Shown: one piece after another, positions 900 to 1,722 of the stretch
Layout of the letters: the number at the start of each line of letters is the position of its first letter
Numbering within the stretch: position 1 is the first letter of the stretch
Origin: a virus
Virus genome (UHGV): UHGV-1662791
DNA: 21,799 nucleotides
Reading direction: 5' to 3' (one strand)
The notes under the pieces: model-generated
Seen by the model: only the letters and a program-made list of their open reading frames with translations
The model's database searches: none
What the model was told of the DNA's origin: nothing
Program-made: the position numbers and the translations under genes

Positions 900-1036
900 T
901 GTTTGAGTTTTATGTGACAGAACGTCTTCGCCACCGCTGGATGCGCCTGCGCTTATATCGTTTCCCCGGTTCTGTTTTGACCGATTACCGGATACTGAAG
1001 AATTACGCCAAAACACTGAAAGGAGCTGCCGCATGA
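896..1036 (+). CDS. ylcG: YlcG-like 46-aa small protein
   Basis: Not in the ORF track (below its length cut-off). Hand translation from ATGATG at 896: [46 protein letters not shown], stop TGA 1034-1036 overlapping the Q-like ATG at 1033. Size and position between rusA and the Q gene match ylcG of DLP12 as I recall it. Confidence 0.45.
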
Positions 1037-1722
1037 ATACCCAATATTTACAGTATGTCCGCGAGCAACTCATTGTGGCTACCGCTGATTTGAGCGGAGC
1101 AACGAAAGGCCAGCTTGAAGCCTGGCTGGAGCATGCACAATTTGATACTGGTACATACAAACGAAAGAAGCGACGCATTCTGGATGAGGTAACTGGCAAG
1201 ATTATTATGCTGGATAATCCGCCGATTTCCGGTAAGCAGTCGTACGCAAAAGGTTCATCTGTCGCCCTGATCAGTCCGGTCGAGTTTTCAACCTCTTCAT
1301 GGCGCCGCGCTGTTCTGTCTCTCGATGAGCATCAGAAAGCATGGTTGCTGTGGAGTTACAGTGAAAATATTCGCTGGGAGCATCAGGTTGCCATAACGCA
1401 GTGGGCATGGAGCGAGTTTAAGACTCTGTTGGGTACCAGAAAAATTGCAGGTAAGACACTGGAACGCCTGAAGAAGTTGATCTGGCTGGCGGCACAGGAT
1501 GTGAAGAGCGAACTGGCAGGGCGTGAGGCTTATGAATACCAGGAACTGGCGTCACTGGTGGGAGTGACATCAAAAAACTGGTCTGAGACATTCACTGAAC
1601 GCTGGGTTGCAATGAAGCACATTTTTCTACAGCTTGATAGCGAAGCTTTATTGCTTCTAACGAGAACACGTTCAAAACAAAAGACGACATTTTCACAGCA
1701 AAATATTGCAAAACTGGATTAA
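1033..1722 (+). CDS. Putative late-gene antiterminator (Q-like), assigned mainly by position
   Basis: 229 aa ORF with AGGAG RBS (1021-1025). Occupies the canonical Q slot between rusA and the lysis cassette, followed directly by a promoter-like element and an intrinsic terminator. The sequence is not lambda Q and I cannot assign a family from memory. Confidence 0.5.
   Translation: MNTQYLQYVREQLIVATADLSGATKGQLEAWLEHAQFDTGTYKRKKRRILDEVTGKIIMLDNPPISGKQSYAKGSSVALISPVEFSTSSWRRAVLSLDEHQKAWLLWSYSENIRWEHQVAITQWAWSEFKTLLGTRKIAGKTLERLKKLIWLAAQDVKSELAGREAYEYQELASLVGVTSKNWSETFTERWVAMKHIFLQLDSEALLLLTRTRSKQKTTFSQQNIAKLD

Follow-up and report, generated by a model that had tools for sequence, protein, structure and literature searches.

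A Q82-type antiterminator gene and its predicted late promoter cassette in an Escherichia coli lambdoid prophage

The Q protein of phage 82 (82Q) has been studied biochemically for decades. Its family is one of the three Q families that are currently recognised, namely Q82 (PF06323), Q-lambda (PF03589) and Q21 (PF06530) (PMC9388147). To act at the late promoter 82PR', 82Q needs both the QBE, which lies between the -35 and -10 elements and within -31..+30, and a sigma70-dependent paused complex at +25 (PMC4914094). Its loading is stimulated by NusA, 82Q contacts the beta flap-tip helix, and 82Q and NusA stay on the elongation complex, where they shield approximately 10 extra nt of nascent RNA (PMC4914094). 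The 82PR' transcript starts with AAA, and its initial region contains a near-consensus -10-like pause element with an extended -10 TG, a discriminator-like GCC at +15-17 and a pause at +25/+26, with U at +25 and G just before it (PMC5001585). Additionally, a published AlphaFold model of 82Q features a C-terminal helix-turn-helix and a ring-like N-terminal segment, and the mechanism described for AlpA, 21Q and lambda Q was predicted to apply to 82Q as well (PMC9371919). Here, we compare with these systems a prophage locus whose late regulator had been left without a family in a preliminary description of the DNA.

Position and family of the Q gene

In the window, i.e., the whole stretch of 21,799 nt that was analysed, the Q gene is accompanied by the following features:

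896..1036, + strand: YlcG-family small ORF of 46 aa (NCBIfam NF033498, E = 1.4e-22; PHROG 2705)
1021..1025, + strand: ribosome-binding site AGGAG, 8 nt 5' of the Q ATG, as read from the sequence
1033..1722, + strand: Q gene, encoding a 229-aa Q82-family transcription antiterminator (PF06323, PHROG 304, identity to phage 82 Q)
2032..3270, + strand: first late genes, comprising holin (2032-2349), lysozyme (2336-2812), Rz (2809-3270) and Rz1 (3029-3211)

The Q ORF extends from an ATG to a TAA and encodes 229 aa, exactly at 1033..1722 (+). Its start codon shares bases with the TGA stop of the YlcG-family ORF in the form of an ATGA, an overlap that suggests translational coupling between YlcG and Q. 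On the 5' side of Q are found genes of the nin region, encoding a YbcO-family nuclease (211-540), RusA (537-899) and YlcG (896-1036), and on its 3' side the genes at 2032..3270, which are the first late genes under Q control; among these, the LydA-type holin was called from PF16083 and Rz from PF03245, complemented by the RefSeq annotation of identical prophages. Since the Q ORF is located between nin-region genes and a lysis cassette, it occupies the canonical Q position of a lambdoid genome. The order YbcO-RusA-YlcG-Q-holin-lysozyme-Rz bears out the preliminary description in this respect, as it had placed the protein exactly at the position of antiterminator Q. Rz/Rz1 are followed by Bor (on the opposite strand), an HNH endonuclease, small and large terminase, portal, prohead protease, major capsid and tail sheath genes. 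The HNH endonuclease gene (4022-4471) directly precedes that of the small terminase. The tail sheath encoded in the late region, at 12296-13792, is of the contractile type (PF04984, PF17482), and its combination with a lambdoid regulation/lysis module indicates that the prophage is a mosaic carrying myovirus-type morphogenesis genes.

The encoded protein matches the Pfam family PF06323 (Phage_antiter_Q) with E = 2.2e-95 and 319 bits against a cut-off of 25, which puts the ORF assignment far above chance; the reading of 1033..1722 as a spurious ORF was rejected. Q residues 4-220 cover profile positions 1-217 of 220, and no Pfam family other than PF06323 was matched at E <= 1. In line with this result, PHROG 304 ('anti-termination protein Q-like') was matched with E = 1.6e-107. 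Membership in the Q-lambda or Q21 families was rejected, PF06323 being the sole Pfam match. Specifically, PF03589 was not matched in the Pfam search at E <= 1, a comparison of the family alignment with lambda Q by hhalign gave a non-significant probability of 0.2%, and the protein showed neither a profile match to PF06530 nor similarity to the Q21 fold. The protein contains zero Cys and thus no zinc-binding cluster. Together, these observations confirm two earlier statements made from the sequence, i.e., that the protein is not lambda Q and that it lacks a cysteine cluster, the latter holding for the protein over its whole length. No conserved pair of Cys columns was found in the 54-sequence family alignment either.

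The type member of the family, phage 82 Q (X92588, CAA63332), has the same length of 229 aa and is identical at 214/229 positions (93.5%), with 223/229 positives, no gaps and E = 2e-163. The 15 substitutions in the window protein are mostly conservative. Correspondingly, in a tblastn search of GenBank phage records, phage 82 was ranked first, on the X92588 feature 'phage 82 Q antiterminator'. As in the window, rus and orf45/YlcG are located 5' of Q in the phage 82 record, the last 39 nt of which end at the Q stop, include the PR' -35 hexamer and the first part of the spacer, and are identical in the window. NCBI already lists an identical protein under the name 'bacteriophage antitermination protein Q [Escherichia coli]', and the 1.5 kb at 900-2400 recur with 100% identity in prophages of several E. 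coli chromosomes in RefSeq, where the gene is annotated as antitermination protein Q. As no model of NCBIfam release 20 matches the protein, this RefSeq name must come from another rule, e.g., Pfam or BLAST.

The ORF thus almost certainly encodes a phage 82-type Q (Q82 family, PF06323), the late-gene antiterminator of an E. coli lambdoid prophage. The gene is an already known, well-annotated Q82-type antiterminator and does not represent a new regulator family. The assignment to an 'unrecognised family' in the preliminary description is contradicted by the full-length PF06323 match, the PHROG 304 match and the 93.5% identity to phage 82 Q, whereas its hedge that the protein might be a known but less familiar Q was correct, Q82 being one of the three recognised families. 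In this sense the locus contributes no new biology, since Pfam, PHROGs and RefSeq already cover the protein.

Late promoter, candidate QBE and leader RNA

The end of the Q gene and the DNA that follows it contain these elements, all of them on the + strand:

1706..1711, + strand: PR' -35 hexamer TTGCAA, inside the last Q codons (promoter scan)
1712..1728, + strand: PR' spacer of 17 bp with the candidate QBE (invariant alignment columns and literature position)
1729..1734, + strand: PR' -10 hexamer TATATT (promoter scan)
1741, + strand: inferred start site +1, first A of AAA (82PR' starts with AAA, PMC5001585; other landmarks in register)
1746..1757, + strand: predicted sigma70-dependent pause element, TGaTATTTT (+6..+14) followed by GCC (+15..+17), matching 82PR' (PMC5001585)
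1764..1766, + strand: predicted promoter-proximal pause site, G +24 / U +25 / A +26 (published pause at +25/+26, PMC5001585)
1790..1816 (+50..+76), + strand: terminator-like 12-bp leader hairpin followed by U-rich UUUUCUGUUUCU, reaching 1826 (+86) with the tail (terminator scan)
1904..1926 (+164..+186), + strand: intrinsic terminator tR' (terminator scan and RNA fold)

Counted from +1 = 1741, the window shows AAA (+1-3), TG (+6/7), TATTTT (+9-14), GCC (+15-17), AATGTT, G +24, U +25 and A +26, so that, by sequence, all published landmarks of the initial transcribed region of 82PR' are in register with this predicted start. From this agreement we infer a start site at 1741 and a pause position at approximately 1765. 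The string of the pause element, TGATATTTTGCC, was also used in a full-text literature search, which matched unrelated papers only.

The conservation of these elements was followed in an alignment of the window with phage 434, PPompW, an Enterobacter phage, a Klebsiella phage, Gifsy-1 and phiES15, in which Q is 47-87% identical where measured. The columns without variation include TTGnAAAAnTnGATT, which covers the -35 hexamer and the first bases of the spacer, TnTGnTAT of the extended -10-like pause element and the G of GCC, and the DNA around these elements diverges. Within the hexamers, the T, T, G and last A of the -35 and positions A1730, A1732 and T1734 of the -10 are invariant across relatives with Q 47-87% identical. 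The same architecture, i.e., -35, spacer, -10 and TGnTAT pause element, is found just 3' of the gene in relatives down to 47% Q identity, and among 80 IMG/VR relatives with Q 88-100% identical, the whole of 1706-1770 is nearly invariant. Because the literature puts the QBE between the -35 and the -10, the conserved core of the spacer, AAAAnTnGATT at 1710-1720, is a candidate QBE, and the bases of this core would presumably be those of the element itself, as judged from their conservation. The Q stop codon TAA (1720-1722) overlaps the core.

The last Q codons, ATT GCA AAA CTG GAT TAA (IAKLD and stop), supply at 1706-1722 the bases of the PR' -35 and of the candidate QBE. Since its codons coincide with the -35 hexamer and the spacer core, the C-terminal AKLD, which is kept in close relatives, may be under constraint from the DNA signal rather than from a function in the protein. 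On the minus strand, TTGCAATATTTTGC at 1698-1711 fits the lambda CII-binding consensus TTGYN6TTGY and overlaps the palindromic -35 hexamer TTGCAA; at the equivalent site, the phage 434 record has an annotated CII site with a paQ -35 signal. Motifs of the CII type occur in the window at chance frequency (5 observed vs 4.3 expected), so that only the position of this one is suggestive of an antisense paQ promoter, and paQ is not claimed here.

Two relatives differ in what lies next to the promoter. In the PPompW/Stx2a-associated phages, as seen in PPompW_132418 (locus 2086-3087), three tRNA genes, for Met, Lys and Arg, and an insertion of the IS element ISEc20 come after the Q82-like gene and PR', where the window has a leader and a terminator. 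In Gifsy-1, the PR' -35/spacer/-10/pause core (locus 1501-1547) is found approximately 840 bp 3' of the Q82-like gene, and an inserted ORF (locus 938-1501), whose annotation cites similarity to an antirepressor, separates Q from this PR'-like element.

Between PR' and the first late gene, tR' consists of GCCAGC-TACAT-GCTGGC, a 6-bp GC-rich stem with a 5-nt loop, followed by T6, and it is found at the same distance from PR' in 64/84 related loci. By analogy, tR' is taken to be the target of Q-mediated read-through. Termination at this site would yield a PR' leader of approximately 186 nt, comparable to the short RNA that results from termination of the lambda PR' transcript. Upstream of tR', the hairpin at +50..+76 is part of the minimum-free-energy fold, and the base changes seen across 26 unique leaders of related loci (GC/GU/AU, UG/CG, UG/UA) leave its pairing intact; it might act as a weak first terminator or serve a structural role in the leader RNA. 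As a whole, the 190-nt leader gives a better fold than shuffled sequences do (z = -3.0). No RNA family was matched anywhere in the window by Rfam at gathering thresholds, and the PR' leader is thus not a catalogued RNA. In agreement with the preliminary description, which had pointed to a promoter-terminator cassette after the gene, the -35 (1706-1711), the -10 (1729-1734) and the hairpin GCCAGC/GCTGGC with T6 (1904-1926) are all present. What had been the least certain gene in the window is now settled as a Q82-type late switch with a cassette of PR', candidate QBE, pause element and tR', and given this identity and the cassette, 1033-1930 can be confidently annotated as such a module.

Expected mode of action and structural model

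The 93.5% identity to phage 82 Q and the matching cis elements allow the mechanism of 82Q to be transferred with high confidence, by analogy, to the window protein. RNA polymerase with sigma70 would initiate at PR', with the predicted +1 at 1741, and would pause at approximately +25 (1765) because sigma70 region 2 would rebind the extended -10-like TGaTATTTT (+6..+14). From its site on the QBE, between the -35 and -10 hexamers, Q would then load onto the paused complex with the help of NusA, would contact the beta flap-tip helix and would move on with the polymerase as a stable subunit, suppressing pausing and shielding the emerging RNA. As a consequence, tR' at 1904-1926 and later terminators would be read through, leading to expression of the lysis, packaging, head and tail genes. 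Based on the same identity, we infer that the window allele has antitermination activity, NusA-stimulated loading and the beta flap-tip contact.

An alignment of 54 family members with 22-93% identity identified as invariant R10, the SWRRA motif (89-93), W104, W126, Q155, W183, W191 and R213. The AlphaFold2 model of the window protein (mean pLDDT 75.5, pTM 0.66) comprises a confident all-helical domain at residues 82-220 and a low-confidence region at residues 20-80. A search of the PDB with this model by Foldseek gave nothing significant, the best match being AlpA (7XYB_G, E = 0.43), and lambda Q was not among the top 50; lambda Q and AlpA are the nearest PDB folds of the model. The structural comparison called for in the preliminary description was thus made, with no significant Foldseek match in the PDB. 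Against BFVD, Foldseek gave one significant match, a member of the same family. PDB searches by sequence yielded only chance matches with the single protein (best E = 0.24) and no matches with the 54-sequence family profile. In the hhalign comparison with lambda Q mentioned above, the only aligned stretch is NWSET/TWSRT in the C-terminal helix, which is suggestive and does not constitute evidence. No experimental Q82-type structure was found by PDB sequence searches or in the literature.

These data touch on a family-level question, i.e., whether Q82-type proteins work through a closed nozzle as Q21 and Q-lambda do. As an alternative that concerns this one mechanistic step only, a Q82-type antiterminator could form an open shield together with NusA at the RNA exit channel, and not the closed ring ('nozzle') of Q21 and Q-lambda. 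Such an arrangement would accord with the capacity of 82Q to load onto a paused complex already carrying 106-nt RNA (PMC4914094), which is topologically hard for a closed nozzle (PMC9388147). However, the published AlphaFold model of 82Q contains a ring-like N-terminal segment (PMC9371919), and the PDB folds nearest to the window model are those of lambda Q and AlpA, so that we consider an open shield rather unlikely. The window model itself does not decide between ring and shield, since the putative ring region is predicted with low confidence.

Another explanation would accept the family assignment while regarding the gene as a silent or inactive remnant in a cryptic prophage, with an allele or a cis site that is no longer functional. 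Many chromosomal prophages of E. coli are defective, and the 1.5-kb region, which has matches in 3673/5426 genomes, reaches coverage of at least 80% in only 834 of these. Nevertheless, the ORF is intact and full length relative to the PF06323 profile, all invariant family residues are present, and the sequences of the promoter, the pause element and the terminator show no damage. Likewise, the lysis, packaging, head and tail genes 3' of Q form a complete set, and several unrelated strains have retained identical copies. Decay of the module is thus improbable.

That Q instead works without antitermination, as a classical activator or an alternative-sigma-like factor at the late promoter, a 'different late-activation mechanism' in the words of the preliminary description, might be read from the all-helical confident C-terminal part, the helix-turn-helix of the published 82Q model and the annotation of the distant family member N15 gp40 as 'late transcription activator', but it is hardly credible given that antitermination by phage 82 Q, to which the window protein is 93.5% identical, has been established biochemically (PMC4914094), that a good sigma70 -35/-10 pair at PR' makes an activator unnecessary, that a pause element and a strong intrinsic terminator precede the first late gene, and that no sigma-factor Pfam family is matched by the protein.

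Comparison with Q82-type relatives and other Q proteins

Among Q82-type proteins, that of phage 434, annotated as 'Q82-like', is 87% identical to the window Q. Other Q82-like relatives are encoded by PPompW/Stx2a phages, Klebsiella and Enterobacter prophages, Gifsy-1 and phiES15, and more distant PF06323 relatives include N15 gp40, phiKO2, PY54 and VP882, so that identity to the window Q within the family ranges from 87% to approximately 26%.

Phage 21 Q (PF06530; PDB 6JNX and 6P18-type complexes) is a functional analogue of the window Q, encoded at the same genome position and acting in antipausing and antitermination (PMC9388147). In lambda, the pause is at +16/17, in contrast to +25 for the Q82 type (PMC5001585). 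Lambda Q (PF03589; PDB 4MO1 and loading/loaded complexes) shows no detectable sequence similarity to the window Q, from which the Cys4 zinc finger of the lambda Q type is absent.

Rather than being a phage late-gene switch, AlpA is encoded on the chromosome and regulates a pathway of programmed cell death. This Q-like antiterminator of Pseudomonas aeruginosa (PDB 7XYB) is 14-16% identical to the window Q, with no relationship at the sequence level. Still, it is conceivable, and we put this forward tentatively and with some doubt, that the Q82 family is a remote structural homologue of lambda Q and AlpA, and that the Q82 branch perhaps forms an open shield and not a closed, RNA-threading nozzle; the shield is suggested by the loading of 82Q onto complexes that carry long RNA. 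Q82, lambda Q and AlpA would then share a helix-turn-helix within a helical core and, at the N-terminus, a flexible segment that changes its fold on RNA polymerase. If this were true, the 'three unrelated Q families' would collapse, at least partly, into one superfamily. This reading concerns the whole Q82 family and not the window locus, and the resemblance in fold has already been suggested (PMC9371919).

As for phage 82 itself, the window differs in that it is a prophage of E. coli whose late region encodes a contractile tail, and its Q allele is as well suited to structural work on the Q82 type as phage 82 Q, though no better.
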